NCBI GenBank assembly: GCA_030867685.1 | Contig: JAQOWU010000008.1 | Span: forward strand, 4,278,001-4,342,000 | Direction of reading: 5' to 3' | DNA: 64,000 nt | DNA from: Wickerhamiella versatilis | Lineage: Eukaryota | Shown: positions 16,785-62,716 of the stretch, piece by piece | How the letters are laid out: each line of letters begins with the position of its first letter | Numbering within the stretch: position 1 is the first letter of the stretch | Notes under the pieces: model-generated | The model's database searches: none | What the model was told of the DNA's origin: nothing | What the model saw: only the letters and a program-made list of their open reading frames with translations | Translations under genes and position numbers: made by a program

Positions 16785-16796
16785 AACGCTTACGGC

Positions 16797-20102: not shown

Positions 20103-20203
20103 ATTAGTCTAGTAATCATAATCGCTGATCATGGAGCAGCTATATAGGGTAGGGTAAGGTTTGATGACGTGCCACGGATACGTAAATCTTGTTTCAACTA
20201 GGA

Positions 20204-24448: not shown

Positions 24449-25474
24449 ATGTACACTTTCCGGTATTATTTTAACAATAAAAAAGCGCGCCCGCTAGCCA
24501 CTTATCATTTAAAAGAAAATATGACTCAGCCACTGACGACTATGGAGTCGGTTTTAAGACGGTCCGTACACACTGCTGTACAGGCTTCCGACGGCTACGT
24601 TTCGGTACTTGGCACGTTGCGCAACTATATTGCTCCAAAAATTACACAGAATACTCGTAATGATATACTTAGCCGATTGGACCGCGGTTTTCTATTTGAA
24701 GACTTAAACACCACGAAACGTCGGTTAGTATTTCGTCCTTCGCGAGCATTTCACTTTTCACAAAGCGTGACTGAGCCCCCTAAATACCAGGGTCGTGTTC
24801 TAGAACCTATGCAATATCCAGGCATACCGTCAGTCAACGACTTACTTCGACTAATTGCTGCAAGCGAAACACCCGAGCAGGTTCACCAAGCTCAACAGTA
24901 TTTGAAAGCATACAACACACACAAGGAAGTCCGGGCTAATCTGCGTCCTGAGCATTTTGTGGCTCTGTTGAAAAAGTCTGCCGAAGTAGGGGCTTTCACC
25001 GAAGTGTACAACGCACTGACTGTAAATCGCTATCGGTACAGAAGATTCCTTACCAATGAATTTTGGCTCGAAGTGTTACGGGTCTATGCATTGAGAGTCC
25101 CTGCCCTCAGTCATCGTTCAAAAAACGTTCTTTATAAGGCCCATAAGCTCAGTCCTGAGGGTATTGGCCGTGAGCTTGTCCTGCTCTATGCGCTGGGACA
25201 ATTTGGTGCCAAATTCGGGGAGCAATATACGAAAAGAATCCCCGAGATTGCAGATATTATAGCCAAGTTAGCACCTACCAGTCCGCTCAATCCTCTTGAT
25301 GCGGTCCTAGGTATCGAGGGGGCCAAACTTACAGGCCATACTGAGCTTGCCCAGATTCTTGAAAAGAGACTCGAGGAGTTCCAACCTAACAACGGCGCTG
25401 ATGTGGAAAGAAAATTGTGGAGTATTGCTGAAGTTGATCAGAATACATCTACTGATAGCTCTAATGCCGAGTAA
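24449..25474 (+). CDS. Probable mitochondrial small-subunit ribosomal protein (Mrp13-like)
   Basis: RLVFRPSRA...EPM..P and LRPEHFVALL..S...G.F resemble Mrp13 as recalled; true start may be 24521 or 24542. Confidence 0.55.
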   Translation: MYTFRYYFNNKKARPLATYHLKENMTQPLTTMESVLRRSVHTAVQASDGYVSVLGTLRNYIAPKITQNTRNDILSRLDRGFLFEDLNTTKRRLVFRPSRAFHFSQSVTEPPKYQGRVLEPMQYPGIPSVNDLLRLIAASETPEQVHQAQQYLKAYNTHKEVRANLRPEHFVALLKKSAEVGAFTEVYNALTVNRYRYRRFLTNEFWLEVLRVYALRVPALSHRSKNVLYKAHKLSPEGIGRELVLLYALGQFGAKFGEQYTKRIPEIADIIAKLAPTSPLNPLDAVLGIEGAKLTGHTELAQILEKRLEEFQPNNGADVERKLWSIAEVDQNTSTDSSNAE

Positions 25475-25547
25475 TAAACGTATGTACATACATAGATTTC
25501 TTCATAGGTTATGTGACTAATTGAAAGTCGATCCCGATCACATCATC

Positions 25548-26150
25548 ATGGCGACAAATATTCATTGGCACGCTGGCATTTCACATGAAGAAAGAAGTAA
25601 ATACACGGGTCAGAAGGGTATGACATTGTGGTTTACAGGTCTCAGTGCATCAGGCAAAAGCACTATTGCTACAGCTTTGGAACAGCACTTGCTGCACAAA
25701 GGTGTTGTGGCTTACCGACTTGATGGCGACAATGTCAGATTTGGGCTGAACAAAAATCTTGGCTTCAGTGAAGCTGATAGAAACGAGAATATCAGAAGGA
25801 TTAATGAGGTCACCAAGCTGTTTGCCGATGCTTCAGTGGTAAGTCTTGCTTCGTTCATCAGCCCGTACCGTAACGACCGTGATCAAGCTCGTGAAATCCA
25901 TGAAAAGGCAGGACTACCATTCATTGAAATCTACGTCAATGTTCCTGTAGAAGTTGCCGAGCAGCGTGATCCCAAAGGTCTGTACAAGAAGGCGCGTGCT
26001 GGGGAAATAAAGGAGTTCACCGGTATAAGTGCACCTTACGAGGCTCCGCTTAAGCCTGAAATTGAAGTTACCCATAACCAATCTATTGAGGACTCCGTTC
26101 AAAAGATTTACGATTACCTTGTCTCAAACAAGTACATTACACCGAAATAG
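25548..26150 (+). CDS. MET14: Adenylylsulfate kinase
   Basis: [43 protein letters not shown]. Confidence 0.97.
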
Positions 26151-26245
26151 ACTAGACATGTTGTTATACTTCTCATATTAGCAGCGAAAATAGAATTAGG
26201 AACTGCTCGAGGAAGTGATTGTTTTCTATTGGACACAAATCCCGC

Positions 26246-26869
26246 CTACCGTCGCAAGCTATCCATTCGTGCCTCGAGATCCTCGGCAGGTGACTCAACA
26301 GCAGGTTGTCCAGATGGCGCCTCTGCCAACTGATTGTTGAGGTCAACTCCAATCTCATCAAGTACCTTTGCCACTACTTCGTCAGACTCCTCTTCCTCTT
26401 CCTCGTCCACACCAGTATCCATCACATCATCCATCATTTCCTGCCGTTGGTCCATCATATCTGTTTCCCTCTCAAAGTCCATAGAGATCTTGGACAACGC
26501 TGGCAAGTTCATTTGTCTATTCATGGAGCCTAGAAGTCTCGAAGCGCCCTGCATGCTTTGCATCATTTGCTGATTCCCACGCACAGTTTGAATACGCAAC
26601 GAAATCGCCTGAAGTTGCGTCTTCATCGTATAGAATTTATGAATGTAATTCCTGGTACGCACGAGGTCTTTAGCCATAACATTTGCCGATGACATGTGAC
26701 CATCTCGGGCTGACTTCTTGATGTCGGCTATCAGCCGCCGCTCCTGACCTTCCAGACGTGACCTTTCACGATCTAACTCTCTCTGAGTCCTTTCTAAAGC
26801 CCTTTGATGCTTTCGCAGTCGCTGCTGGGGCGTCAATCGCTTGCCGAACACCCAGTCCAGCATCTGCAT
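26246..26869 (-). CDS. DID4: ESCRT-III subunit Vps2
   Basis: WVFGK..TPQQRLRK.QRALERTQRELDRE, AKDLVRTR, MIM1 tail DLEARMDSLRR; start at 26869 or 26863. Confidence 0.95.
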   Translation of the reverse strand: MQMLDWVFGKRLTPQQRLRKHQRALERTQRELDRERSRLEGQERRLIADIKKSARDGHMSSANVMAKDLVRTRNYIHKFYTMKTQLQAISLRIQTVRGNQQMMQSMQGASRLLGSMNRQMNLPALSKISMDFERETDMMDQRQEMMDDVMDTGVDEEEEEESDEVVAKVLDEIGVDLNNQLAEAPSGQPAVESPAEDLEARMDSLRR

Positions 26870-27445
26870 TGGGTTAGTCAAGAGAGATTTGGCAGGCTGC
26901 AAAGTGCAATCGTTCCTGCACCGAACCACAGCATGGTGTACTACTGGCTACCACTTTTCTAATGATATTTCTTTTTACTGATGCACGTTCAGAGCTAGTC
27001 GATTCATGAAAGTTTTTAACCCTCCAGTTTTATTTCGGTAGAAGCAACATAAGGCGGCATTTTTAAGGCGTATTGATCCTTATGGAATCTATGTCCTCCA
27101 CCAATTGCCATGTCTTAGAAACCAGCCAGTGGTAGATTCTAGAAGAGTTGCATCAGGCCCAAATCCAAGCATAAAATTACGACACTGTCCATGATCATTT
27201 GAGAAATATAATAAAAACAGCATAATTATGGTAATTTTTAGTTTTTATATACAGGAATGCCACTGGCATCAACAAGTTTAACCCCGCCATTGGGCAAACC
27301 GTCCAGTTTGCGATTCCTAATCGATGGTATAACCTAGCCCTTTACGTGGCTGCTAGGCTGATATGGTAAGATGGTGGTGCGGGTGACGTAAACAACCAGT
27401 CCAATTGCCCCTTTGCCCATTCTGGTGACCTAAAGAACTCGAGGC

Positions 27446-28579
27446 ATGGATGTTGTGACAGAGCGCGTGAGGGACGGAGTGACGGGTGAGGAGTACGACC
27501 TACAGTACATCCAGTCAAGGGTTGTGGGGAGCGGCTCATTTGGTGTAGTCTTTCATACTCGACTTCTGCCCTCCCAGGAGGATGTAGCGATTAAACGGGT
27601 GCTGCAGGATCGCCGATTCAAAAACCGAGAGCTCGAGATCATGCGTAAGGTCCACCATCCGAATATCGTGAATCTTAAGGCATACTTTCACAGCGTGGCA
27701 GAGAATGACGACGTGTACCTCAATCTAATACTCGAATATGTGCCAAGCACGGTTTTAGCTGAGTCCCGGTACTTTACCCGTGCACGGTTGCCGATGCCTA
27801 ACTTGCTGGTGAAACTTCTTACTTACCAGATGTTCCGGTCGCTTGCTTATATCCATGCATTGGGAATATGCCACCGGGATATTAAGCCTACTAATCTTTT
27901 GAGCGATTCTCGGAATGGAGTCCTTAAGCTCTGCGACTTTGGCAGTGCCAAAATTCTTCATCCGGGGGAGCCCAATGTAGCGTATATTTGCTCGCGGTAT
28001 TACCGGGCCCCCGAGCTTATTTTTGGAGCTGTCAACTACACGACCAAAATAGATGTATGGAGCGGATGCTGCGTCATGGCAGAGCTCATCCTGGGGTCAC
28101 CGCTTTTTCCAGGAGGTAATGGGATCGACCAACTGGTAGAGATAATCAAGGTGTTGGGTACCCCGTCACGGGAACAGATCAGGGCAATGAATCCTAGCCA
28201 CAATAATGATCATAGATTTCCACAGATTCGGCCACATCCCCTGCAGAGAGTTTTCAGGACGGCACCTCCGGATGCGATTGATCTAATGTCGAGTATACTT
28301 GAGTATTCTCCACAACGCCGCCCGTCGGCAATTGAGGTGCTGGCACACCCTTATTTCGATGAGCTTCGAAACCCAAATACGACGTTGCCGAACTGGCATC
28401 ACCCTGAGCAGCCCAACCGGCCGTTGCCACCGCTTTTTAACTTTACCCGTCTCGAACTAAGCATTGCACCGCATCTGAATGAACGCCTCGTACCTCCACA
28501 TGCAATTTCCCAACTGGAGTTCGATATATCCACATTCAAACCAATGTCTGAACACGAAATGAGGGCCCTGGCACAGTAG
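27446..28579 (+). CDS. Glycogen synthase kinase-3 family kinase (Rim11/Mrk1-like)
   Basis: [42 protein letters not shown]. Confidence 0.95.
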
Positions 28580-28667
28580 CAATAGGCGCAGGTCTCGCCT
28601 AAAAATTAACGTAGTGTAAAGTCGAGTCAAAAGCATGTTACGTGCTCTAAATTTACTCTTATATTGA

Positions 28668-29177
28668 TTATATCTGCAGTGAGTAACTATAATCGTCCTC
28701 GAGGTTCTGCGCTAACCACAGACCTGCACAGCTTACCATCACGCAGCCTGACGACACCACGTTTTCGATGCCCATTCCCAGCACGGGCATGTGATGATGA
28801 TGTACAATGTAACGTAGCACTAGAATAACAACTGAACCGGCCACTCCGCCAGACAGAAACGCAAAGCCCATAAACAGGACAACCTTGGCCTGCCAGCTGT
28901 CACTGCTGCCACCGTACTCGCTACCAAATGCAATGCCTGATTGCAAACGTCTCTTCTCAACAAGATTAATGACGGCCATCCCTAGCGAGCTCAGAAGCAG
29001 GGGTATCCAGTCCACAAACCCCACGTGGAGTGACGATGGGTTGCGGTGTGAAGACCACAACGCACTGTCTAGCATAAGATAAAATGCTAGCCCATAAAGG
29101 ACACCACTCGTGTATACCCCTCCCGCTCGTAACGTTTGTGAGGAGACATGCGGCAAGTTCAATGTCAGGCCGCTCAT
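28668..29177 (-). CDS. VPS68: Vacuolar sorting protein Vps68
   Basis: GGVYTSG.LY, HVGFVDWIP, WQAKVVLF.GFA and C-terminal EDDYSYSL; ATG at 29177. Confidence 0.9.
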   Translation of the reverse strand: MSGLTLNLPHVSSQTLRAGGVYTSGVLYGLAFYLMLDSALWSSHRNPSSLHVGFVDWIPLLLSSLGMAVINLVEKRRLQSGIAFGSEYGGSSDSWQAKVVLFMGFAFLSGGVAGSVVILVLRYIVHHHHMPVLGMGIENVVSSGCVMVSCAGLWLAQNLEDDYSYSLQI

Positions 29178-29248
29178 AATGCTGACACAACCAACCACCT
29201 GCTATCACACGTACCTTTGTCACCCAGAAGATTGTTGGAGGTCTTTTG

Positions 29249-30103
29249 ATGGAAATGGCAGTCGAATCTAAAAATTTATACTATGCATTCCCAGATGAGT
29301 CTGTTGGATTGTTTGATATTAACTTGAAGCTACCACATGGGTCGAGAACCCTTCTCATAGGGGCCAACGGTGCAGGTAAAACGACCCTACTCCGTGTGCT
29401 TGCAGGAAAGACACTTACAAAAGCAGGTTCGGTCATTGTTGATGGCAGAGACCCGTTTCGGGATGTTAAGAGTGACACTACCTATCTAGGTACTGAATGG
29501 GCGTCGAATACCACAGTTCGGCGTGATGTACCTGTTACATTGCTAATTGCTTCAGTAGGTGGAGATGCCTATCCAGACCGGAGAGATCTCCTTGTAGATA
29601 TACTTGATATCGACCTTACGTGGCGAATGCATGCTGTCTCTGATGGTGAACGACGCAGAGTTCAACTATGTATGGGCCTGTTGCGGCCATGGACCACATT
29701 GCTTTTGGACGAGGTTACGGTCGACCTCGATGTACTTGTTCGTTCACGTTTACTTCAATTCCTCAAGTCTGAAACGGATAACCGTCAATGTCAAGTTATA
29801 TATGCTACCCATATATTTGATGGTCTAACAGGATGGCCTACACATATTGTTCATATGGATCTGGGTAAAATTGCAGAAATAGGAAGCACAGAGGAGCTTC
29901 TAGAGGCAGGTAAGAAGGAGGGGCTAATTGATGGATCCCGGGGTTCACCCCTCTTAGAACTCGCCTTGTCCTGGCTAAAAAGTGATCTGGAAAAAAGAGG
30001 CAAAAGAGAACGTAAAACGTGGGAAAGTGTAAAGGGTTCTATAGGATTGTCGCTGGACCATGCTGATCGCTTTAGCAGCTACTTCCAAGCTACCAGGCGT
30101 TGA
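29249..30103 (+). CDS. CAF16: Soluble ABC ATPase Caf16
   Basis: GANGAGKTT, YLGTEWA, WRMHAVSDGERRRVQL, LLLDEVTVDLD, YATHIFDGL. Confidence 0.92.
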   Translation: MEMAVESKNLYYAFPDESVGLFDINLKLPHGSRTLLIGANGAGKTTLLRVLAGKTLTKAGSVIVDGRDPFRDVKSDTTYLGTEWASNTTVRRDVPVTLLIASVGGDAYPDRRDLLVDILDIDLTWRMHAVSDGERRRVQLCMGLLRPWTTLLLDEVTVDLDVLVRSRLLQFLKSETDNRQCQVIYATHIFDGLTGWPTHIVHMDLGKIAEIGSTEELLEAGKKEGLIDGSRGSPLLELALSWLKSDLEKRGKRERKTWESVKGSIGLSLDHADRFSSYFQATRR

Positions 30104-45926: not shown

Positions 45927-46136
45927 ATGAACGCCATTATTCTTGCTATTGCTTCTATCGCTGCTGCCCAGTCTACTGGTGGTGCCGTCCAGCAGATCGG
46001 TGACGGCCAGGTCCAGCAGCAGACTGCTACCTCTGCTGCTGCTGCCGCCACCTCTGCTCCTGCCCAGGCTAACGGTGCTCCTCAGATGGCTGCCGCTGGT
46101 GGTGCCGTCGCTGCCGTTGCCGCTTACTTCCTCTAA
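45927..46136 (+). CDS. Small GPI-anchored wall protein with one PIR repeat (Cwp2-like)
   Basis: Signal peptide, QIGDGQVQ, omega-like ANGA plus hydrophobic tail; strong codon bias; TATATAAG at 45882. Confidence 0.88.
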   Translation: MNAIILAIASIAAAQSTGGAVQQIGDGQVQQQTATSAAAAATSAPAQANGAPQMAAAGGAVAAVAAYFL

Positions 46137-46992: not shown

Positions 46993-47297
46993 TGTTGCGT
47001 TCACCCCCACTAAGTACCCTGGATGAGAGATTAATTCGCTAGTTAATTTTATATTTGTATTTAAAATATATATTTTCCTCCTCGTGAGTCATTTACCGCC
47101 CTCGCGCCGAACCACCAAGTTTGATCATCTGGTTAGATGGATCACATTGCCACTACCCAGAAAAATTCTAAGTTAGGGTCAAAACCATACAGAAAGAGGG
47201 GTGATTTGCGTCAATTAAAGTGGAATTGACTAATAAAATTCTACTATAAAAGCACAACAAGGCGTTGCAGTTATCACTTAGTTTTTATTTTGCCGTG

Positions 47298-48038
47298 ATG
47301 CTCACTCTAGTTTTTCTTTCCGCTCTTGTCGCTGCCGACGTACGTGATGCTGTGTCCTCTGCCATTGATATAGGTAGCTCACTCGCTAATACTGTTAGTG
47401 GTTGGTCCTCCGGGGACGGCTTGAGTGGTGCACTTGCTATTCAAGGAGCATTCTCACCGTTGCCATCTGCTATAGGTGCCATTTCCTCGAATGCAAACGA
47501 TGTAAAGCCTGACGATATTGAGCTGTTTGCCAGCCTTGAGGCCAGCTCTGTTAGTCTCTTGAAGGCACTCGAGGCGAAGGCGGAGGATTTCCAGAGCGTG
47601 GGAGCTACAGAGATTGTGAAAGGCGACATTAGTGAAATTGCTGAGACAGCTAGTGGTGCAGTTGACGCTGTTTTCAGTGCGATTGCCACACAAGATCTCT
47701 CTGGTGATCAAGCTAGTTCTGTGAGTAGCATTGCCTCCGGATTTTCGTCGGGTTTTTCTGCTATTGGGTCGAGCTTTGGGCTGAGTTTGGCCCAATTACC
47801 CACTTTTCAATACAAGGGAGGGGGAGGCAGTAGTTCATCCGCCGCTGAAACTAGCTCTGCAGAAACTAGCTCTGCAGAAACTACTTCTGCTCAATCGAGT
47901 GCGCCATCAAGCAGCAGTGTTGCTAGCACTAGTGCTCAACATTCCTCCCCTGCTGAAGCCAATGGTGGCTTGAGACTGGCGACTTCTGGTGCTGGTGCTG
48001 TTGTTGCGGCCGCAGCTGCTCTCGCCTTTCTATTCTAG
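47298..48038 (+). CDS. GPI-anchored wall protein, HsbA/Mp1-like helical domain plus Ser/Thr stalk
   Basis: Signal MLTLVFLSALVAA, amphipathic domain, (AETSS)x3 stalk, EANGG plus hydrophobic tail; TATAAAA at 47245. Confidence 0.8.
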   Translation: MLTLVFLSALVAADVRDAVSSAIDIGSSLANTVSGWSSGDGLSGALAIQGAFSPLPSAIGAISSNANDVKPDDIELFASLEASSVSLLKALEAKAEDFQSVGATEIVKGDISEIAETASGAVDAVFSAIATQDLSGDQASSVSSIASGFSSGFSAIGSSFGLSLAQLPTFQYKGGGGSSSSAAETSSAETSSAETTSAQSSAPSSSSVASTSAQHSSPAEANGGLRLATSGAGAVVAAAAALAFLF

Positions 48039-48251
48039 TTACTTAACTGAAAGTGAATTCTTACTGTAAGGTTTGATTACGTAGATATATATATGAGTAT
48101 TATTGTGAACATGAGGTGGGGTCGGTAAACGACTTTTTTTCCTTTAGCAAGTCTTATAGTATTGTATGACGTATGTCTAAATAAGAAAATGATTCTATTC
48201 CATTATACGCTGGAAATTTTTAACCGGTCATTCGTTCATTTCAATCTTGTT

Positions 48252-49298
48252 TTATATACGGGCAAGCAGTTTTGAGGGACTACCCTCCATCAACGACACT
48301 GCTTCCACGGCCATTCCTAATCCCATCTGATAGCCTGCACCACTTGCTCCGTAATTGTGTATGAGTCTCTTCCCATCAGCAAGCTTCAAACACTCAACGC
48401 GAGGACCCCCCTCGCGCCCTGGACGCAACCCCACAGCGGAACCAATGATCTCCAGCGGGCCATATTGTACGAGTTGGGGCCACATTCGAGTAGCTCTATC
48501 TAAAAATAGCGAAGATTGTGGCCATAGTGCGTCCCCTGATGAATTTCCAGGTTCATGTGATCCACCTACAATCACCAAGCCGTTTGAGAACGGTCGTGGA
48601 ACAATATACGAGCTGAAGCCCGCTGCGGCGAGCCCAATGTTTTCTTTGATCTGCGGTGCACGTACTAAAACTGCTTGTCCACGCACAGGAAAATTTTTTC
48701 GAGGGTCGTTGACGCCCGCGAGCTTCGTAACGCCTAGGCCCGTACAATTGAACACCACGTCACTCGAAGGTATTTTAAATGCATCATTGATATCTGTTAT
48801 CTCTTGTCTAATAAACGTAACCCCCTGGTCAGACAAAAGTTTCTGCAGGAACCCCAAAAACTTTGGCGTATTGAAGTTATAAGCTAGGAATTTGTGACCG
48901 TATACCGCTCCATGCTGTTCAAGGAACTGCTTGTCGTCGATGACTTCGAAGTCTGGTGAGATTTCTCGTAGCGTTTCCGTGATCAGGGCTGGTGGGGGGC
49001 CTTCAGCCCACAGCTCTATCTCTGGAACACGAAGCAATCCTGCTTCTTCACCGTAGTCGCTGAAGATGCCTTTGAGCATTCTAAAACTCGCTTTGTTCCA
49101 TTCCAATTCCTTTTTTGAGTCATGGAATACCCTGCTTGACCAATGGGCCCCCGCCACGGGTGACACATATTCGAGGCTACTATCGCCTGGTAGGTGCTTT
49201 GCAAGCACAATCGTGTTGGTTGCGTATCCTTTCCTAGCGAGCACGAGTGCTGTATAGAGTCCGGTGATCCCGCTACCCACGATAACTATCTTAGCCAT
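48252..49298 (-). CDS. D-amino acid oxidase (fungal type)
   Basis: IVIVGSGITG FAD motif, SPVAGAHW, VVFNCTGLG, PVRGQ, GLRPGR, IHNYGASGAGYQ. Confidence 0.92.
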   Translation of the reverse strand: MAKIVIVGSGITGLYTALVLARKGYATNTIVLAKHLPGDSSLEYVSPVAGAHWSSRVFHDSKKELEWNKASFRMLKGIFSDYGEEAGLLRVPEIELWAEGPPPALITETLREISPDFEVIDDKQFLEQHGAVYGHKFLAYNFNTPKFLGFLQKLLSDQGVTFIRQEITDINDAFKIPSSDVVFNCTGLGVTKLAGVNDPRKNFPVRGQAVLVRAPQIKENIGLAAAGFSSYIVPRPFSNGLVIVGGSHEPGNSSGDALWPQSSLFLDRATRMWPQLVQYGPLEIIGSAVGLRPGREGGPRVECLKLADGKRLIHNYGASGAGYQMGLGMAVEAVSLMEGSPSKLLARI

Positions 49299-49635
49299 TC
49301 AACACCCACGTAATTATCTCCAGCATCCTGTAAGACCCACAACCCTGATCTTTAAGTAGTTGAGTCATAGGCCTACGAGCTATGTCGATTGAATTTGGCA
49401 GTGACCGTCTTTTTTAATATAAGTGAAATGATAATAAGGTCTTATGCTGGAGCACCCTCTGGTCCAGATGTACGCTTTTCTCAGTAAGAAATCGCAAACA
49501 TACGATGCCAAATTAGGGTGTACATGTGATATATCGCTCCTAGAGCTTAGCCCAGACATATCATAGTAATTCAAAATGTGGTAATTAAATTACGATAGCT
49601 CATTTCTATACTTTTTTATGAACGAGGTAAAGACG

Positions 49636-50871
49636 CTAGACGTCAAAATCATCCGCTTTGGCGCGATCAAATTCCTCTTCTTCCAACTCAAACTCTGTCT
49701 CCACATCATCAGAACTGGCTATGGAACCAAGAACGCGATCAACTACAAACTTACCGCTGACAGGGACCAGACAAAGAAGGCCTGCGAGCATCCAGAAGGA
49801 GACATTGAGGCTGGTGGCATTCGCGACGAACCCAATTCCCGCCGGACCAGCTAGAATCCCGGCATATCCAACACCGGTAACTGCAGCCACAGCAAGGCCT
49901 GGTGGCATAATGTTTTGTTTGCCGGCCAAACTGAATATAATCGGCACAATGTTCGAAAGACCTATTCCAATTATGGCAAACCCTGCCATTACAAGAACGA
50001 AAAATTTGGACAACAGCACTAATAGAAAGCCTACAAGCGCGATGATGCTGCCGCCAACCAACGAACGGGTATCGCCTATTTTTGCAACAGCCTTATCACC
50101 ACAAAGACGGCCAATAGTCATAGTAATGGAAAATATCATGTATGCAAAACCTGCTTTATTGGTTTCAACCAAGTTTCGATCGATAAGGAGCAATGCGCTC
50201 CAGTCCAGCATCGCTCCCTCAACAAGGAAGAGGATGAAAGCTAGAGCAGCCATCAGAAGAACTACGCCATGAGGAACTGCAAATGCAGGACTAGGCTCAG
50301 ATTTCTCACCCGTTCCACTCAACAGGCGGGGCGCTGCTATAATGACAATACCTACAACAATAACAGCAGAGAGCAGAGTAGCAACGACGGGGGCAATTCC
50401 AAATGATAAAATAAAGGACACAAAAGCGGATCCCATGAAAGCACCAATACTGAATATACCGTGAAATCCTGACATCAAGGGCTTATCCATGACGCGTTCA
50501 ACCTCCACTGCATGAATGTTCATTGCAACATTAATAGACCCTGAGCAAATACCGAACATCACTAGTGGAATAGCAAGAAGTATTTTGGTTGGAGCTATAG
50601 CCAATAGAGACAAATCACATACTGCCGCAATGGCAGCACTTATTATTACAGGCTTGCTTCCAACCTTCGCACAGATAGAACCAACAAAGGTCATGCTCGT
50701 GATAGCACCTATTCCCACGCATAGTAGCAGCCCTCCCATTGTTTTGGCATCTGCTGAAAGTCTCTCCTTTGCAAATGGTACCAGGGGAGCCCAGCCGGAC
50801 CCGGTGAAACCGCTTCCAAAGAATACAAGTTGAGTTGCAAGCTGAGCTCTTCTCTTAGTATTATTATCCAT
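49636..50871 (-). CDS. MFS transporter, bacterial YbjJ-like
   Basis: WAPLVPFAKERL, VAMNIHAVEVER...PLMSGFHG.FS.G, EGAMLDWSA, GRLCGD, GYAGILAGP. Confidence 0.85.
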   Translation of the reverse strand: MDNNTKRRAQLATQLVFFGSGFTGSGWAPLVPFAKERLSADAKTMGGLLLCVGIGAITSMTFVGSICAKVGSKPVIISAAIAAVCDLSLLAIAPTKILLAIPLVMFGICSGSINVAMNIHAVEVERVMDKPLMSGFHGIFSIGAFMGSAFVSFILSFGIAPVVATLLSAVIVVGIVIIAAPRLLSGTGEKSEPSPAFAVPHGVVLLMAALAFILFLVEGAMLDWSALLLIDRNLVETNKAGFAYMIFSITMTIGRLCGDKAVAKIGDTRSLVGGSIIALVGFLLVLLSKFFVLVMAGFAIIGIGLSNIVPIIFSLAGKQNIMPPGLAVAAVTGVGYAGILAGPAGIGFVANATSLNVSFWMLAGLLCLVPVSGKFVVDRVLGSIASSDDVETEFELEEEEFDRAKADDFDV

Positions 50872-51387
50872 ATCTCAGGAACTCAATTTATCAATGTGCA
50901 GCTTCTATGCAACAATAAGAGATATCAATTCACACAAAATTCCTAATGAAGATTTTTGCACTATGGTTATCTCGGATTATTTCAGCAGAAACTAAATGAG
51001 CTCTATCACACCTAGCCCAGATTGGTAGAAGAGAGACCTTGCAGACATATATGAAGCTTTTTGTGCTGCGAAAATTGATTAACTTATATCGAAAATCATT
51101 TAGAGACATATTTGCGTCGGCAAATCTCGGGCACTACAGCTCTCTGCCGGTATCGGCATAATGCAGCATTAAACTTCTTACTGTGTGACAAAACCCCGTT
51201 CGCTACCTACTGGTAGCTACTAGCCCTTCAGCATGTTAGCACTATAAGAAGCCTATCAACCTAGCAACTTGCTAGGACCAATTCCAAAATGATTATCTAA
51301 ACGGTATTTTCGGATAACTTGAGTAACATTTCCGTCATTACTCAGGGCAGGCTTATGCTAGTCGAAAATTGATACGTTCATTTGCTA

Positions 51388-52062
51388 ATGGCACACCAAA
51401 GGACTATTAAGATAGCACCCGGTGGTCATGTGGAGAAGTTGCGGCAGGAAGTGGATCACGCTTGGAATAGGGCGGTAAGACATAAATTTGTCAATGAGTT
51501 GTTCACAGGAGAGCTGCCCGACAAGGTTCTTGCTACTTACTTGATTCAAGATTACCACTTTTTCGAGGGAGGGCTATCACAAATTGGTGCGTGTGTAGCC
51601 TTTGCAAGTAGTCTTCCTGCTAAAATAAGGTTCGCGAAGCAGTTGGGGTTCCTTGGTTACAATGAGAATAACTATTTCGAGAAATCACTACATGAACTTG
51701 GTGTTTCTGCCATTGAAATCGAAAACTCGACACTTACGGATACGACTAAATCGTATATTAAACAAATGACTGACACGACCAACACATGCTCATATCCAGA
51801 ACTGTTGGCGATGATTGTGGTGGCTGAGTGGATCTATCTCGACTGGGGCCAGCTTCATCTCGAACTGCCTCCACGATCACTTCACCGAGAATGGATTGAG
51901 CTTCATAGAGGCGATAGTTTCTTTGAATGGACACAGTTTCTTGTTGATGAGCTCGAAAAGGCTTTGTCTGTGGATAAATCAGCTGCTGATAGGGTAAGTT
52001 CTTTATTCAGAAAAACAGTAGAGCTTGAAGGTGATTTTTTCGATAATGCTTTCAGGAATTAA
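51388..52062 (+). CDS. Stand-alone TenA-family protein, TenA_E type
   Basis: W.RAV.HKFV.EL..G.L, YLIQDY.F, AEWIYLDWG (Glu in place of the TenA_C Cys), EWIELH, F.K.VELE..FF. Confidence 0.85.
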   Translation: MAHQRTIKIAPGGHVEKLRQEVDHAWNRAVRHKFVNELFTGELPDKVLATYLIQDYHFFEGGLSQIGACVAFASSLPAKIRFAKQLGFLGYNENNYFEKSLHELGVSAIEIENSTLTDTTKSYIKQMTDTTNTCSYPELLAMIVVAEWIYLDWGQLHLELPPRSLHREWIELHRGDSFFEWTQFLVDELEKALSVDKSAADRVSSLFRKTVELEGDFFDNAFRN

Positions 52063-52251
52063 ATGTTGATTCGGTCTTTAGCTTGTCCACTATACTTATT
52101 TACAGGCCGGCGTCGGAGCTAGTCATCATTACACGAGAAAGAAGAATATACCTTACTTTTTATTAAGACCCCTCTACATCCTAGCACTATATGCTACTTC
52201 TATACTTCATCATATATCTCTGTAACACAATTTTTCTCGTAGACTTGTAGC

Positions 52252-54213
52252 ATGAGGTGGGGTATAAAGATGATTTGTAAGACAGGGGTACATATTAGTG
52301 CTGTAAGTAACTCCATGAAGCATTCACTGGAAAGCTATACTACGGTCGGCAACCTACACGAGGAATTTGATGTATTCTTTAACTCCGGCAATTATGAAGT
52401 CCAACGAATCAATCGCAACTCAGCTAGAGTAATATGCAATTCTTTATCGGGATGTCAATTGGAATGCAATGCTACCATTGATAAATTCCTTGTTTTCAAG
52501 CTTGATGGTGGCTGGATGAAGCCTTTGACGGGGGAAGTAGCCTCATCGGCTAGAATTGATAGGATCTCGGGTGCTATCATAGAGACTGAAGCTGGTCTTC
52601 TTTCCCTCCAAACTGAAAACACGCCATATAATACGGGATCTTTTCTTTCATTCCAGAAGAATGTGTTTTGTATATCAACTGCGCCTGGTAGTGCACCTGG
52701 TAACTATGCAGCTGTGATAGTGTCGAGAGTAGAGGAGTCGCAGCTTCCTACCGTATTTTCTGACCTCCAAACTTACCTGGTACCTTCGATAGGTTCCGGT
52801 TTTTTGGGATACTGCACTTGGAATGGGATCGGACTAGATGTCTCAAGCAATGGTGTCTTGAGTGCCTTGTCAACTCTCACCAACGTCGGAGCTTCACCCG
52901 GGTGGATTGTATTGGATGACGGCTGGCAAAAATTTAACGGTTCACGACAGCTCGTGGACAATGTTCCATCGAAAGATAAATTTCCGGGAGGACTGAAAAA
53001 CTTCATAAGTAAAGTCAAACAGGATTTTGGAGTTCGGTCAGTATTTATATGGACAGCTGTAACCGGGTACTGGGAAGGAGTAACCACTCAATTTGCTGAG
53101 TCCAAGGGAGTAGAGGTCGTTAAAGATCAACATGGAAGGCTTATTTTCGCCCCTACCACAGGTGGTGTCTTCAAATACTATGAGATGTTTTTCCGGTACC
53201 TAAGTAACGAAGGTGTTGCTGGTGTGAAATGTGATGTGCTTCAGAATATTGAAGCGGTAGAGGTGCCTGATTTCTCCACCAATGAATTCTATAATGCTTA
53301 TCGTGAAGCGATGACGATTTCTGCTGCTCGAAATAATCTAGAATTAATTTGGTGCGGCGGCATGGTGCCTTGGGTATTGCAAAGAGGCCCTTTAGGTCCT
53401 CAGTTTCCCGCTTGGACCTCTTCCTGTGCCTTTCGCAATTCAGACGACTTCTTCCCAAATGTATATGATAGTCATTTATGGCATATCTACTGCAATTTCC
53501 TGAATTCTCTTTATACAAGACAATTCGGTTGTCCTCTCGATTTTGATATGTTCCAAACCACGTTGGACCCACCTTTTAGTAGACTACATGCTGCTGCGCG
53601 AATTATGTCCGGTGGACCTATGTATATCACAGATGAAGCGAACAGGCATGACTCTAGCATACTCTCAGAATTCATATTGACTGGAGGAAAAGTGCCATAT
53701 TTCTATGGTCCACCCTTCATAACAAATCCACTTAACCCCTTTGGTGCTGGACTTCTTGAGGTACAGCAAGCATGGGGAGATTCAAAGGTAATAGCCTTGT
53801 TCAATCTTGAATCCTCAGGCAAAAATCCAATTCCAATATCGCCTCGGACTCCTTCAGGTTATGTTTCACGACCTTACAACAATCATAAAACTCTCACATC
53901 AGGTATGTTTGAGCTCATAACGCATACCAGACCCTTTCGTGTAGGCAAAATGGGGGATGCGGTGATCTTTGGATATGTGGATAAGATGGCAGGGATTACC
54001 GCGGTTATGAATTATAAGGTTTTAGCAGATCCAATTCGACTCGAAATAGACCTCTCAGCCGGTAACGGTATATTGGGAATACGTTGGCCTGGTAAGTCTA
54101 TAAATGCTTATATGTCCGGACAGGACAGAAAAATCAGCATTGACTTTGATGATGACGGAACTGCACTTATCAAAATACCACATTCCGACCGACCGAAAAT
54201 TTACGTTCAGTAG
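52252..54213 (+). CDS. GH36 raffinose synthase/Sip1-like alpha-galactosidase
   Basis: GYCTWN, LDDGWQ, GYWEG, GVKCD (nucleophile), RNSDDFFP (acid/base), DFDMFQT, SGGPMYITD; start may be 52315. Confidence 0.9.
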   Translation: MRWGIKMICKTGVHISAVSNSMKHSLESYTTVGNLHEEFDVFFNSGNYEVQRINRNSARVICNSLSGCQLECNATIDKFLVFKLDGGWMKPLTGEVASSARIDRISGAIIETEAGLLSLQTENTPYNTGSFLSFQKNVFCISTAPGSAPGNYAAVIVSRVEESQLPTVFSDLQTYLVPSIGSGFLGYCTWNGIGLDVSSNGVLSALSTLTNVGASPGWIVLDDGWQKFNGSRQLVDNVPSKDKFPGGLKNFISKVKQDFGVRSVFIWTAVTGYWEGVTTQFAESKGVEVVKDQHGRLIFAPTTGGVFKYYEMFFRYLSNEGVAGVKCDVLQNIEAVEVPDFSTNEFYNAYREAMTISAARNNLELIWCGGMVPWVLQRGPLGPQFPAWTSSCAFRNSDDFFPNVYDSHLWHIYCNFLNSLYTRQFGCPLDFDMFQTTLDPPFSRLHAAARIMSGGPMYITDEANRHDSSILSEFILTGGKVPYFYGPPFITNPLNPFGAGLLEVQQAWGDSKVIALFNLESSGKNPIPISPRTPSGYVSRPYNNHKTLTSGMFELITHTRPFRVGKMGDAVIFGYVDKMAGITAVMNYKVLADPIRLEIDLSAGNGILGIRWPGKSINAYMSGQDRKISIDFDDDGTALIKIPHSDRPKIYVQ

Positions 54214-54404
54214 ATACAGCTACAAACTCCTCTAAGGTATTTATTCGCTTGTGCTTGAATTTCAAACTATAGACAAGTTAGGCTTATAACACTGTTTTTG
54301 ACTATCCGGTTGGTGGTCTCACTTAGGTGCCTACTAAGCAAGCAACATTAGATAATACCACGTCTTACAACGACAACTATACTAAGCTGACTCTGATAAG
54401 CACA

Positions 54405-55583
54405 ATGGATAAAGGAGCTGTGCTTAAATCACCAGGTAATGTTCTTAAAGACGTGGCTTTACCTGCTGCCGTAATTAATGAAGCAGCACTTGATTCCAAC
54501 ATAGCATGGATGCAGAAATTTGCCGATGATCATGGTGCGAGGCTAGCCCCCCATGGGAAGACAACAATGGCACCCGTTCTCTTTAAGCGCCAGTTGAATT
54601 CAGGGGCTTGGGGGATTACTGTTGCCACGGCAGTGCAGGCCTATGCTGCTTTTGAGCATGGAGTGCATCGAATTCTTATGGCCAATCAATTAGTTGGAGA
54701 ACCAAACATGACCATTATTGCCGATGCTATTTCTTCGGGGCTTGAATTTTACTGTTTTGTTGACAGTGTTGAGAATGTTGTACAACTGGGGAATTTTTTT
54801 GGTAAAAGAAAATCTTCTTTGAACGTATTAATAGAGCTTGGTATTGAAGGCGGGCGTTGTGGATGTCGTACGGCTGAGGAGGTTGAAGCACTTATCAATG
54901 CCATAGGCAGTCAAAAAAATCTCAATCTTGTTGGAATCGGGGGATATGAGGGACTTATCAGCAGCAGTAACGAGATAGAGGATGTCTCGGCCTATGGCAA
55001 AAGACTGGTGGAAACTGTTCGTGACCTCCGTAACAGTGGTATATTGAAGCAAAAAGATCCTCTTGTAACAGCTTCAGGTTCAAAATGGTTCGATATAATA
55101 GCTAAAGAGTTTCAGAAAGTGGGAGAGAATTATACGCCTGTGCACCGTCCGGGTTGCTATGTCGTGCACGACCACAGCCTATATGCTGGTGCAATGAAAG
55201 ACATAAAAACAAGGAACCCAAGCTTAGTTGGAGAGCTTGTCCCGGCACTTGAAGTATTAGCGTACGTTCAGTCAGTGCCCGAGCCTGGTCTTGCGATTGT
55301 TGCCTTAGGCAAGAGAGATATCGGAACGGTACCTGATATGCCAATTCCTTTGCGCCTGTATTCCCAGAAATTAGGAAAAGTGGCCGTGGAAGGTTTGAAG
55401 ACATTTAACATTATGGACCAACATACTTTTGTGCAAATTCCATCTTCTGGACCACCTGTCTCCGTAGGTGACGTAATTGCGTTTGGAACATCCCATCCCT
55501 GTTTGACTTTTGACAAGTGGCGCAATATGCTACTGGTCGATGATGATCTCAATATTATTCAAGAGATTAAGACTCTTTTCTAA
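54405..55583 (+). CDS. Fold-type III PLP dehydratase (D-serine/D-glucosaminate dehydratase-like), bacterial type
   Basis: LAPHGKTTM (PLP Lys), ILMANQLVG, GGRCGCR, GYEG, RPGCYVVHD, LGKRD, MDQH, SHPCLTFDKWR. Confidence 0.88.
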   Translation: MDKGAVLKSPGNVLKDVALPAAVINEAALDSNIAWMQKFADDHGARLAPHGKTTMAPVLFKRQLNSGAWGITVATAVQAYAAFEHGVHRILMANQLVGEPNMTIIADAISSGLEFYCFVDSVENVVQLGNFFGKRKSSLNVLIELGIEGGRCGCRTAEEVEALINAIGSQKNLNLVGIGGYEGLISSSNEIEDVSAYGKRLVETVRDLRNSGILKQKDPLVTASGSKWFDIIAKEFQKVGENYTPVHRPGCYVVHDHSLYAGAMKDIKTRNPSLVGELVPALEVLAYVQSVPEPGLAIVALGKRDIGTVPDMPIPLRLYSQKLGKVAVEGLKTFNIMDQHTFVQIPSSGPPVSVGDVIAFGTSHPCLTFDKWRNMLLVDDDLNIIQEIKTLF

Positions 55584-55824
55584 AAAGTGATCCAACGTAG
55601 TAGTTCATTGATTGTGAATCTTGATAATAATCGAAAACAGAGGCATTGCACTAGGGCATGGCCTCAAGCAGCTTTTACATTTTGTCGATTTTTTTGAAGT
55701 GTTCTGAATCATTGTGTAGGCTGGAATCTGCGATTCTCACGCATAGAAAATACTTTTAGTGCTGTATAATACTTTTTTATCTTGATAATCATCAATGAAC
55801 AGTCAGCAGATTTGAAACTCACCC

Positions 55825-57270
55825 ATGACAACCGATGCTCAGAATATAGGACAGATCACTACTCAACCTGAGCTACAGGAGGAAGCGCCTGAAGAAGTAA
55901 GTAGCCTCTTGGGGGCCTCAAGCACTAAAAGCGACAAGCTGGGATTCCACCATCTGATTCCACTATTTGTCGTTTTTGTGATGGCTGTCGCGAGCATGGC
56001 TATTTCTACAGCTGCAGGTTTTGACATCACCTTCCTTTTCATATGTAAGTTTTTTGGAACCGATGAGTCGAAGTGTTTTCGTGATCCTAATATAGGAAAT
56101 GTGGTCGCCAACTATACCTCAGTAATGACCTTTTGGCGAGGACTTGTAGCCCTTATTGTCAATACATATGTTGGCTACGTGAGCGACAAGATAGGTCGTA
56201 AACCTGTGCTCCTCGTGAGTATAATAATGAGTTCACTTAGCCGTGTATTGACATGGTACATCGTTTTTCATATGCAGAGGCCAAATACTTATTGGTGGTT
56301 AGCGCTACCCACCATCATTGACTTCTTGGGAGGCTCGACTCCAGTAGTTATTATGATGACGATATCATATATCACTGATTATATAGGAGATACGGCACGT
56401 CGAGCTAAAATGCTAGCCGTACAAGATGGATTGCTATACATCTCACTAGCAAGTGGTCCTATTTTGGGTTCATTGATGTTGAAGCATATATCTTTGCAAA
56501 AACTTTATATGGCCACTGCTATCATTGGGTTTTTGGCAGCCCTCTTGACGACCCTTTTCCTAACTGAAAGTCTTAGTGCCACATATAGGCAACGAAACTC
56601 TGAGATAAAGTACAATTTACTGAAGTCGATCAAACCTCTTTTCTTCAGCCACATAGAAGACCGTCGATCGAAAACCAACACGGTGCTTCTCCTTTTATGC
56701 ACTCTTGTAGGCACAGAGTTTACGATGTCTTTCTTTGTTGTACTTATGCTTTATCCCAAGCGTAGATTTGGTTGGTCTGCCATTGAAACAGGATATTTGC
56801 TCAGTATTATGTCTTCAACTGGGACAGTATGTCTTCTCGTCGGCTTTCCTGTCCTCTATTCGTTGCTAGCTCGAAACTGGGGAATCAGTCAAACAGGAGT
56901 AGATTCTGTAGATACAGTGTTATTCCGGGTATCTTTACTACTGAGTGCCAGCGGATATCTGCTATTTGGAAAAGCAAATACGAGCGGTGAATTTTACATG
57001 GCTGGAGCTCTCGAAGCAAGCGCAGCAATCGGAAGGCCTCTGTACAAAAGTTGCTTGCTAAAATATGTACCCCAAGGCCAGGCTGGTTCTTTCCTGGCAG
57101 CGTTTGCTCTATTAACGTCTATATCGGACATGTTTGTTCCTTCACTATTGGCGAAGCTTTTGGCGTGGTCATATTCATGGCGGCCTTCTTTGATATTTGA
57201 AGTAGTTTCATCAGTCTTTGCCGGAGTCTTTTTGCTCGCATTGCTTATAAGACCTGATAATACGGCGTGA
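55825..57270 (+). CDS. MFS transporter, fungal SLC46/YJL163C-like
   Basis: About 12 TM segments, GYVSDKIGRKPV motif A, SYITD, FLTESL. Confidence 0.85.
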   Translation: MTTDAQNIGQITTQPELQEEAPEEVSSLLGASSTKSDKLGFHHLIPLFVVFVMAVASMAISTAAGFDITFLFICKFFGTDESKCFRDPNIGNVVANYTSVMTFWRGLVALIVNTYVGYVSDKIGRKPVLLVSIIMSSLSRVLTWYIVFHMQRPNTYWWLALPTIIDFLGGSTPVVIMMTISYITDYIGDTARRAKMLAVQDGLLYISLASGPILGSLMLKHISLQKLYMATAIIGFLAALLTTLFLTESLSATYRQRNSEIKYNLLKSIKPLFFSHIEDRRSKTNTVLLLLCTLVGTEFTMSFFVVLMLYPKRRFGWSAIETGYLLSIMSSTGTVCLLVGFPVLYSLLARNWGISQTGVDSVDTVLFRVSLLLSASGYLLFGKANTSGEFYMAGALEASAAIGRPLYKSCLLKYVPQGQAGSFLAAFALLTSISDMFVPSLLAKLLAWSYSWRPSLIFEVVSSVFAGVFLLALLIRPDNTA

Positions 57271-61108: not shown

Positions 61109-62716
61109 TTATTGAAGAGGAAAGTCCACAGTGTGGTTCCTATTGAGCGAGCAAGTATCAATTTCTGCACCATCATACGATCGGAAGAACCTGACAGTTA
61201 ACCTAGAATCACTTTCGATATCCACGCGGGCAACTGCATAATGGTCTGCATCCCCCCACTCGAAGCCTTTTGTGGTACCGGATTCAAACGAAGATATCGA
61301 GGATTGCCCTTCGATATTTCCAGCCCCTCCAGCAACAATGTACATCGGAGCTTTAGGATTATCGTACCCTGCTTGATCAGGAGAGCCCTTGTACATAGGC
61401 TTGAAGCGCTGCGAGTTGTGCTCGTGACCGAAAATTGCCAAATCTACACCGTACTCGTAGAATAAATCTTCGAATGCAGCCTGGCATTCATGGCAAGAAA
61501 CCAATGAGCTAGATGCAGTGTACCAAGGCCTGTGGCCACCTACAATGACCCAAGGAGTAACACTTCGATCAACAGAAGCAAGATCTGCCTTCAGCCAATC
61601 GATTTGCTGCCCATTGTAACCAAATGGACCTTCGCTAAGCAGATATCCATCGATCGAGAGAGTTCCTATTTGATCCGGGGCATTTGGAAAATCAGTCTCA
61701 GTGTTTATAGAAATGTAATGGACCAAGCCATAGTCAAAAGAATACCACATCGGAGGGACTGCCAAGTCACGTGCATGACTGCGAAGATCATTCGCCGTCT
61801 TGTTTTTTGATGGTCCCTCAGTACCAGATGGCATGATGTTAGTGAACCGAGTGATAAAATCGGTAAAGTTATATTGGCCTCTCGGACACAATTCACTAAC
61901 AAACGGCACTTCATTACACGAAGCCTCATGGTTGCCTGGACCAACCATATAGGGCTTTGAGCCCGACACTGGCGAAAGCTGGTCGTAGAACTGTTCCAAT
62001 ATGGCTTCGTACGAATCTGGACCAGCAAAAAAGTCATTGGGATTCAAATACCAGTCATCGGCGTAGCCAAAATCACCTGGATGGACGACAAACTCATACG
62101 AGTCAGCAAGAGATAGCAAACGCTCCACACTTGGATGATCTTGAGAGGGCGCATTGTTAGAGGTGTTTTTAAAGCCGTCTGTGCCAAAGAGTCCCATATC
62201 AATTGCGACGGCAAAATTAAATGGCGTGTTATCTCCAGCTGTGCGACCACTCGTAAAGCTGCCAATAGTGCTATTGCTCGATTGAACCTTGTAATAGTAT
62301 TTCGTCGATGGCTGCAAACCAGTGAGTTCCACAGAGCTGTACCATACTCGTGAAGTGGCATAACTTATGGAACCATTATCCGAACATGCAGTTGAGTTCA
62401 GATTATCCTCCTCCGTGCCATAGGACACACATGGTCTCTGATACTGTTCAAAGGAGCTCCAGCCGATGTTCATCGATGATGGGGATGAGAACCCGAGCCG
62501 TAGGCCTACAGGGGTTGAAGGGTCAGATGGACGCTGCGGCCACACACTTTTACCATCATAAGACGCAGAATCATTACCAATTGATGGCGTTGCCTGTGGA
62601 TAGAATGCTGTTGACGCGTCATATGGCGTTATGAGGGATACCGTAGCGAAAATAGCGCCGCAGCTTTTGGCCATTAATATGAAAAATAGCGGTGAGAACC
62701 AAAAAATGAACGCCAT
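61109..62716 (-). CDS. Secreted purple acid phosphatase
   Basis: Signal-like N-terminus, FN3-like domain, metal motifs DMG, GDFGY, GNHE, GHRP and GHEH. Confidence 0.92.
   Translation of the reverse strand: MAFIFWFSPLFFILMAKSCGAIFATVSLITPYDASTAFYPQATPSIGNDSASYDGKSVWPQRPSDPSTPVGLRLGFSSPSSMNIGWSSFEQYQRPCVSYGTEEDNLNSTACSDNGSISYATSRVWYSSVELTGLQPSTKYYYKVQSSNSTIGSFTSGRTAGDNTPFNFAVAIDMGLFGTDGFKNTSNNAPSQDHPSVERLLSLADSYEFVVHPGDFGYADDWYLNPNDFFAGPDSYEAILEQFYDQLSPVSGSKPYMVGPGNHEASCNEVPFVSELCPRGQYNFTDFITRFTNIMPSGTEGPSKNKTANDLRSHARDLAVPPMWYSFDYGLVHYISINTETDFPNAPDQIGTLSIDGYLLSEGPFGYNGQQIDWLKADLASVDRSVTPWVIVGGHRPWYTASSSLVSCHECQAAFEDLFYEYGVDLAIFGHEHNSQRFKPMYKGSPDQAGYDNPKAPMYIVAGGAGNIEGQSSISSFESGTTKGFEWGDADHYAVARVDIESDSRLTVRFFRSYDGAEIDTCSLNRNHTVDFPLQ

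Follow-up and report, generated by a model that had tools for sequence, protein, structure and literature searches.

A stretch of 64,000 nucleotides from the budding yeast Wickerhamiella versatilis (contig JAQOWU010000008.1, positions 4,278,001 to 4,342,000; hereafter the window) holds five consecutive intronless genes, which encode a D-amino acid oxidase (DAO), a YbjJ-like transporter of the major facilitator superfamily (MFS), a TenA protein, a GH36 protein and a deaminase dependent on pyridoxal phosphate (PLP). The deaminase gene is read here as an orphaned ongC-type gene for a D-glucosaminate/D-Ser/D-Thr deaminase, taken without its partners from a donor in the Halomonadaceae. The best explanation for the group as a whole is probably that of a chance mosaic in an acquired-gene-rich stretch at a chromosome end, and not of one pathway.

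In the proposed scheme, five independently transcribed genes lie side by side towards the inner side of a chromosome-end stretch, in a kind of region where acquired genes accumulate; three of them came from bacteria in three separate events and are now fully adapted to yeast composition. The ongC-type deaminase would have been taken alone from a Halomonadaceae ongC-R-B-D cluster, and its most likely reaction would turn D-serine, D-threonine and D-glucosaminate into ammonia and pyruvate, 2-oxobutyrate or 2-keto-3-deoxygluconate (KDG). The YbjJ-like MFS transporter, of proteobacterial type, would be an older acquisition shared by at least three yeast lineages. The cysteine-less TenA, of Brevibacterium/Streptococcus type, would probably convert degraded thiamine pyrimidines (FAMP, AmMP) to HMP, while DAO and the divergent GH36 α-galactosidase-type gene are fungal.

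The PLP deaminase

The best solved match of the PLP enzyme is 3gwq (E-value 5.8e-102, residues 39-418). Among the best 120 of its 4,233 matches, two closer relatives at 97% and 75% identity are followed by proteins whose named members are all gammaproteobacterial, with Chromohalobacter, Salinicola and Aidingimonas at the top (62-65% identity), and fungal names are absent from these 120. When one genome per prokaryote species was scanned, 80 loci were retained, of which that in Chromohalobacter moromii matched best (63%); with the members from Vibrio and Psychromonas the yeast protein shares ~44-45% identity. In a maximum-likelihood tree of 54 rows (all trees in this study are quick searches with SH-aLRT support values), the three yeast rows group together (100) and are nested in a 12-row clade of Salinicola, Chromohalobacter and Aidingimonas (99), which lies inside a wider, mostly Halomonadaceae group. 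Both the identity levels and this nesting agree with an earlier sequence-only reading of the window, which had called the enzyme a bacterial dehydratase. The yeast protein also retains all columns that are invariant over 20 family members (the three yeast rows included), among them K78 of the HGKTT motif, which we take to be the PLP lysine, and H390 and C392 of SHPCLTFDKW, presumably the metal site.

The neighbours of the bacterial genes give the deaminase a more specific identity. Across the 80 loci, an Amidohydro_3 protein (OngB-like, D-aminoacylase-type) is found at 65, an RpiR/SIS protein (OngR-like) at 60, a RidA protein (OngD-like) at 58 and an SSF protein (OngIT-like) at 13, Pfam assignments of the neighbours having been made for 11 loci; the closest named locus (L023) is among those with OngB-, OngR- and RidA-like neighbours. 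For Pseudoalteromonas prydzensis ACAM 620, PMC9537276 describes an ong (oxidised N-acetylglucosamine) cluster in an ongC-R-B-D layout with ongIT, which serves an oxidised-chitin pathway. In it, OngB removes the acetyl group of GlcNAc1A to give D-glucosaminate (GlcN1A), which OngC, a PLP enzyme of fold type III, converts to KDG and ammonia; OngC also accepts D-Ser and D-Thr (PMC9537276). The yeast gene is read as ongC-type because its bacterial relatives lie in this layout and because all the invariant columns are retained. Most plausibly, the lone yeast enzyme would release ammonia from D-Ser, D-Thr and D-glucosaminate, substrates predicted from its relatives. The sequence-only reading had guessed at amino-sugar acids, and the guess was a good one, since the bacterial relatives belong to ong-type clusters for D-glucosaminate.

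As to the partners of ongC, a Pfam scan of the 64-kb window found no OngB, OngR, OngD, OngIT or KDG kinase, and KDG kinase, KDPG aldolase and N-acyl-D-amino-acid deacylase were not found by name in the W. versatilis gene table of PMC13376923 (Commun Biol 2026), the copy of which may be incomplete. The same table places a bacterial-origin FAD oxidoreductase (00576), an ArgE-type deacetylase (00578) and a RidA protein (00579) close together within genes 00576-00579; the ArgE-type deacetylase beside RidA recalls the OngB/OngD pairing. Supplementary Data 6 of that paper labels the deaminase gene (00116) 'HGT Bacteria, New function' and names it 'D-serine deaminase/dsdA'. No report of an OngC-type enzyme in any eukaryote was found in the literature searched, the relevant papers all being bacterial.

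Separate origins of the bacterial-type genes

The three bacterial-type genes point to three donor groups and stand at three identity levels (63% for the deaminase, ~50% for the MFS transporter and ~47% for TenA). When the 80 bacterial deaminase loci were searched over up to ~8 kb on each side with the yeast DAO, MFS, TenA and GH36 proteins (E-value cutoff 1e-10), relatives of these four stood beside the deaminase at none of them. Chromohalobacter genome G001 gave no MFS match; it gave no TenA match either, a result that shows little, as the TenA search was empty in all five proteobacterial/acidobacterial genomes covered. The three donor groups, the 80 loci lacking the partners and the missing MFS match in G001 rule out a single operon, and the three genes are best read as products of separate transfers from different bacteria. 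The sequence-only reading had come to the same view of an island assembled by separate transfers.

In composition the three genes resemble their host. Their GC content at third codon positions (GC3) is 0.38-0.42 (MFS 0.41, deaminase 0.38) against 0.79 in the Chromohalobacter homolog, and their codon usage correlates with that of the native genes of the window at 0.43-0.72 against -0.30 for the donor-type gene, from which it follows that the transfers are not recent. Two of the three bacterial origins, those of the deaminase and of tenA, are already tabulated in PMC13376923, while that of the MFS gene is not.

The MFS transporter deserves separate treatment. Among the best 120 of its 5,097 matches, the named proteins come without exception from bacteria, such as Rhizobium, Sphingomonas, Bradyrhizobium and Paraburkholderia (47-54% identity), and none of the 120 bears a fungal name; matches at E-values of 1e-60 or below occur in 21 of 401 sampled Pseudomonadota genomes. 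It is these nearest relatives, Alpha- and Betaproteobacteria at ~50%, that support a bacterial descent of the gene and agree with its earlier description as bacterial-type. In the tree, in which no fungal sequences were included (as in that of TenA), four yeast-type rows (100) branch off on a long stem and none of them falls among the 31 proteobacterial rows, so that the donor cannot be placed. The protein carries an added acidic C-terminal tail, which is common to one of the four yeast-type rows, a relative at 64% identity (P0123), and at least three yeast lineages carry such a YbjJ-like transporter. Its bacterial neighbourhoods, followed at eight loci, show no consistent partner and hence no clue to a substrate, and neither a deaminase nor an oxidase is found in any of them. 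The gene (00119) is labelled 'Native' in Supplementary Data 6 of PMC13376923, yet in the tables of that paper two of four YbjJ-related genes of the same PANTHER subfamily are labelled 'HGT Bacteria', in agreement with a bacterial descent of the family.

The named proteins among the 82 matches of TenA belong to Brevibacterium (46-47%), Streptococcus and distant metagenome-assembled genomes of Rhodobacteraceae and Pseudomonadota. In the TenA tree the yeast clade (99) lies inside a bacteria-only, unresolved group with Brevibacterium-like and Streptococcus clades, and with these relatives the bacterial origin claimed for the gene is upheld. The best solved matches, 1z72 and 2a6b (both E-value 5e-54), have a glutamate at the position of the active-site cysteine, and the cysteine of 2gm7 (LLPCFW) is aligned with Ala-Glu in the yeast protein (VVAEW). 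The name TenA_E, which the sequence-only reading had given to the protein, is accordingly correct in the sense of cysteine-less. Characterised TenA_E proteins let cells use FAMP and AmMP (PMC10470507). The yeast TenA may belong to a separate cysteine-less lineage, because the ocean data of PMC10470507 include no tenA_E from Firmicutes or Actinobacteria. The published label of the gene (00118) is 'HGT Bacteria, Replacement' (PMC13376923 Supplementary Data 6). Bacterial thiM and thiD are genes 00284-00285 at the same chromosome end in the same table, and in the Wickerhamiella/Starmerella clade the pathway of thiamine salvage has been restored with operons of bacterial origin (Goncalves and Goncalves 2019, as cited by PMC13376923 and PMC12461148).

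The two fungal genes

DAO and GH36, by comparison, had been described as fungal, and the Atlas clusters for the former and the names of the top phmmer matches for the latter bear this out. All Atlas clusters listed for DAO are 98-100% Eukaryota, with Ascomycota or Basidiomycota as the commonest phylum. Its best solved match is the D-amino acid oxidase 1c0i (E-value 1.1e-38), which we take to be the Rhodotorula enzyme, followed by the D-aspartate oxidase 9vpf (1.9e-34). For GH36, an exhaustive phmmer search of 1.84 billion representatives gave a best match outside its own cluster of 35% identity, and the named top matches are Wickerhamiella sorbophila, Pyronema and Ascobolus. An Atlas feature search had put mostly bacterial clusters nearest to GH36; this was rejected in view of the phmmer result and the fungal names. 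The protein aligns with the Arabidopsis enzyme 7exf and conserves GVAGVKCDV (GVxGVKxDV, KxD) and RNSDDFFP (RxSDDF, SDD), which presumably hold the catalytic aspartates. GH36 is thus a fungal, very divergent and isolated member of the raffinose-synthase/alkaline α-galactosidase family, and DAO, on the evidence of Atlas, the solved structures and its published label, is fungal and native. Both DAO (00120) and GH36 (00117, annotated as galactinol-sucrose galactosyltransferase-related) are labelled 'Native' in Supplementary Data 6 of PMC13376923.

Transcription

Published expression values are triplicates in two glucose media, YPD and YNB, neither of which contains the candidate substrates (PMC13376923). 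Between these media only two of the five genes are differentially expressed, GH36 (log2 change -1.9) and DAO (-0.75). In addition, four raw RNA runs under the same species label (X21-X24), representing at most two samples and two studies, were aligned to positions 47000-56000. About three quarters of the aligned reads are 95-99% alike to the window, and so the RNA comes from another strain. DAO, MFS, TenA and the deaminase are well covered, mostly by tens of reads per column in X21-X23, and GH36 is weakly covered. The depth falls to 0-0.7 between DAO and MFS and to 0-2 between TenA and GH36. These drops between genes, together with the unequal depths, imply that the genes are transcribed separately and at differing levels. 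For TenA and the deaminase, the RNA reads begin only ~5-27 bases before the ATG (51361-51388 and 54386-54405, respectively), which fits very short leaders of the two transcripts.

In the two glucose media, there is no sign of common regulation of the five genes. Co-regulation, which the sequence-only reading had put forward for checking, does not appear in the published RNA-seq, where only GH36 and DAO respond.

The RNA runs also differ from the window at ~180 listed positions between 48203 and 55600 that are fixed in all reads, and in the DNA immediately downstream of the DAO stop codon (48203, 48216) they carry a deletion of two bases and an insertion of one. Protein relatives of the deaminase (P0001) and of the MFS transporter (P0121) are 97-98% identical to the window proteins. 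These fixed differences and close relatives mean that at least two strains or very close species, ~2% apart, carry the five genes.

The chromosome-end setting

The acquired genes of W. versatilis are concentrated in 'End' domains, AT-enriched regions of low expression that span more than 500 kb at the chromosome ends (PMC13376923). Judged by gene numbers alone, it is plausible that the five genes lie inside a delimited End domain. In the table of that paper, 23 genes among the first 161 are labelled 'HGT Bacteria', four of them consecutive (00084-00087), and only 70 of the first 102 are labelled 'Native'. When the bacterial labels were permuted among these genes, at least one four-gene window with at least three bacterial genes arose in 65% of shuffles with the labels of the paper, in 70% when the MFS gene was counted as bacterial too and in 81% when the first 120 genes were used. 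A comparable cluster in 65-81% of shuffles means that the clustering is what this stretch yields by chance.

For these reasons the functional 'salvage island' of the sequence-only reading is not sustained: only two of the five genes respond to the media, their transcripts are separate and unequal, their functions are unrelated, and interleaved acquired genes are the rule in the region.

Alternative explanations

Several observations weigh against a chance mosaic. DAO and the ongC-type enzyme are alike in liberating ammonia from amino acids of the D-configuration, their genes are two to four genes apart, and a transporter adjoins DAO, so that a functional link is conceivable. The second-best matches of the deaminase, MFS and TenA (P0002, P0122 and P0242, at 75%, 81% and 59%) all give a longest contig of 102,347 bases, which suggests that the bacterial-type trio is linked in a related species; chance does not predict this, although it could be plain inherited synteny. 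Regulation, moreover, was seen in two glucose media only, both lacking the candidate substrates, and the bacterial origin of the MFS gene is drawn from its nearest relatives, with no fungal rows in its tree and with the published pipeline calling it 'Native' (PMC13376923). A nitrogen-scavenging module is an alternative that is unlikely and still merits attention. The MFS transporter would import D-amino acids or D-glucosaminate, DAO would oxidise neutral D-amino acids, the substrate class predicted for it, and the OngC-type enzyme would deaminate hydroxy-D-amino acids and D-glucosaminate, with TenA and GH36 as bystanders or loosely co-selected genes. The main support for it is the possible linkage of the trio on the 102,347-base contig of a relative. 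It is also favoured by the tandem arrangement of DAO and MFS on one strand, by the complementary substrate classes of the two enzymes (for OngC, PMC9537276), by the similar moderate levels of DAO, MFS and deaminase transcripts (~13-58 transcripts per million, TPM) and by further bacterial-origin D-amino-acid genes in the genome, namely two D-aminopeptidases, a D-amino-acid dehydrogenase and several RidA genes (PMC13376923). It is opposed by the lack of shared regulation in the two media, where DAO responds but MFS and the deaminase do not, by the variable bacterial contexts of the MFS gene (a deaminase or oxidase at none of eight loci), by clustering that stays within chance for the domain and by Wickerhamiella domercqiae, in which the families (matched as families, not proven orthologues) are at the unlinked genes 00024, 01938 and 04155. 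A chance mosaic remains the preferred explanation. An ecological version of the module is speculative and quite unlikely: a halotolerant food-fermentation yeast would have taken ongC alone from Halomonadaceae of a shared salty habitat and, with DAO and the YbjJ-type transporter, would obtain nitrogen from the D-serine, D-threonine and D-glucosaminate that bacteria and oxidised chitin release. If true, the deaminase would be the first of its D-glucosaminate-cleaving kind in a eukaryote, and a YbjJ-type transporter would for the first time have a substrate assigned.

Other alternatives concern the origin of the genes. Rather improbably, the MFS gene could be a vertically inherited fungal gene, which would leave two bacterial genes only. 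No bacterial family encloses the yeast clade, the gene occurs in at least three yeast lineages, and its PANTHER family presumably also has a fungal protein, which we count in favour of vertical descent; the 'Native' label of gene 00119 points the same way (PMC13376923 Supplementary Data 6). Opposed to these are the uniformly bacterial names among the best 120 of 5,097 matches (47-54% identity), the 'HGT Bacteria' label given to two of the four tabulated members of its PANTHER subfamily and the 21 of 401 sampled Pseudomonadota genomes with matches at or below 1e-60. Transfer of a single bacterial operon, later split by inserted fungal genes, has precedent in the horizontal operon transfers documented in this yeast clade (PMC13376923; PMC12461148), but it has a very low probability given the different nearest bacterial groups and identity levels, the 80 deaminase loci with no MFS or TenA relative within ~8 kb, the closest donor-type genome with no MFS match (the empty TenA search there showing little) and the placement of the genes on different strands. 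Equally remote is an assembly artefact or bacterial contamination, for which the bacterial similarity itself, and nothing more, can be cited. The GC3 and codon usage of the genes are host-like, yeast genes stand on both flanks, RNA reads cover the bacterial-type genes even in a poly(A) library, the stretch is present in 20 runs from 11 studies, and the gene table of an independent long-read assembly has the same gene order (PMC13376923).

Gene models and neighbourhood

The five open reading frames (ORFs) were confirmed with the coordinates, strands and Pfam domains given for them earlier (Table 1), and the order of five consecutive genes laid out in the sequence-only reading stands. The start of TenA was trimmed to the first ATG, in keeping with the 224-residue protein P0241, which is 100% identical, and with RNA reads that start at 51361. 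The start of the deaminase was likewise trimmed to its first ATG, which fits the start of the 391-residue relative P0002 and RNA read starts at 54400-54417. The tandem genes for DAO and MFS are separated by a gap of 337 bp, and the divergent region between MFS and TenA is a possible shared promoter.

Table 1. The five genes and the divergent intergenic region in window coordinates, with published expression in two medium sets (TPM, PMC13376923) and the depth of aligned RNA reads per column
Feature	Coordinates	Strand	Pfam domain (E-value)	TPM, set 1	TPM, set 2	RNA depth
DAO (348 aa)	48252..49298	-	PF01266 (5.6e-34)	29-42	13-19	13-60 (X21-X23); 1-12 (X24)
YbjJ-like MFS transporter (411 aa)	49636..50871	-	PF07690 (6.9e-15)	42-48	28-33	9.5-48
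MFS/TenA divergent intergenic region (516 bp, GC 0.39)	50872..51387	.				falls to 2.5-12
TenA (224 aa)	ORF 51382-52062, ATG 51388	+	PF03070 (6.4e-21)	112-150	106-164	mostly 16-69
GH36/raffinose-synthase (653 aa)	52252..54213	+	PF05691 (1.2e-34)	24-32	4.6-5.9 (~five-fold difference)	0-8 (about 10-fold lower than others)
PLP deaminase (392 aa from first ATG)	ORF 54327-55583, ATG 54405	+	PF01168 (6.3e-12), PF14031 (1.2e-15)	46-58	25-47	4-42

A Pfam scan of 26 further large ORFs of the window found mostly ordinary yeast genes, six of the 26 being without a Pfam match; the neighbours include ARG5,6-like, XRN-family exonuclease, APS kinase, Snf7, MCM10-like and ABCC transporter genes. The five genes are thus in a normal chromosomal context. 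Genes 00113-00125 of W. versatilis JCM 5958 follow the order of the window in reverse and are given as purple acid phosphatase, two MFS, D-serine deaminase, galactinol-sucrose galactosyltransferase-related, tenA, YbjJ-related inner membrane protein, D-amino-acid oxidase, two unannotated, alpha-1,2-galactosyltransferase, ABCC and RAT1 (PMC13376923 Supplementary Data 6).

Three of the neighbours are of some interest in themselves. An ORF of 69 residues at 45927-46136 (+) has a signal-peptide-like start, a middle rich in Ala, Ser, Thr and Gln and a hydrophobic C-terminus, and resembles a GPI-anchored wall protein. By position alone we equate it with the unannotated gene 00122, which at 10,600-29,400 TPM has by far the highest expression of the neighbourhood (PMC13376923). 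Next to this very highly expressed gene, an HsbA-like secreted/GPI-type protein at 47265-48038 (+), with a PF12296 match below the Pfam cutoff, is nearly silent (RNA depth ~0-1.4; 0.3-6.5 TPM for gene 00121). The purple acid phosphatase gene at 61109-62716 (-) is gene 00113, labelled 'HGT Pezizomycotina' in PMC13376923, so that the acquired-gene-rich stretch extends past the coordinates of the five genes.

Habitat and significance

The stretch was found in 20 public runs from 11 studies, mostly with food-fermentation or food metagenome labels; nine of the 20 may be the origin of the window itself and do not count as independent. The bacteria-rich nectar or insect niche suggested by the sequence-only reading finds no backing here, as it is food-fermentation metagenomes that carry the DNA and the one resolvable donor is a halophile family. 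From the labels of the runs and the halophile family of the deaminase donor, a salty fermentation habitat would seem to fit better than nectar or insects.

Bacterial genes in Wickerhamiella and Starmerella are well documented and two of the three found here were already tabulated, so that the mosaic itself adds little. What is new is a proposed donor and a specific function for a gene listed as 'D-serine deaminase', namely that of an orphaned ongC from Halomonadaceae. If confirmed, this would place an enzyme of the bacterial oxidised-chitin pathway in a eukaryote, with a donor and a recipient that are both salt-tolerant. A bacterial descent of the MFS gene labelled 'Native' would suggest that acquisitions which are older and duplicated are under-represented in the published alien-index list. 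The group also serves as a worked example that the neat-looking 'islands' at these chromosome ends are not readable as pathways without regulation or genetics.

Comparison with known systems

The eukaryotic D-serine dehydratase of the Saccharomyces cerevisiae Dsd1 type also has PF14031 and is likely to catalyse the same reaction on D-serine as the window enzyme. The latter, in contrast, is of bacterial descent and far closer to Halomonadaceae proteins, and its gene is labelled 'New function' in PMC13376923, that is, without a native counterpart. The region described in that paper is AT-leaning and rich in acquired genes, as is the window, but its available passages and rows give no donor, no link to ong and no discussion of this gene group.

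The yeast TenA has PF03070 and the loss of the active-site cysteine in common with TenA_E (PMC10470507), and differs in that its closest relatives are the uncharacterised 1z72 and 2a6b proteins and those of Brevibacterium. Like the rebuilt thiamine salvage of the clade, it represents bacterial thiamine-salvage genes in the same group of yeasts; it lies ~165 genes away from thiM and thiD, is cysteine-less and has a second tenA gene beside it in the W. versatilis list of PMC13376923, which counts two in all.

With regard to the ong cluster of P. prydzensis (PMC9537276), the yeast gene is alone and has no OngB, OngR, OngD or OngIT gene nearby. Its protein, however, shares the PF01168 and PF14031 architecture of OngC, and the bacterial relatives of the gene match the ong layout, with an OngIT-like SSF protein only sometimes present.

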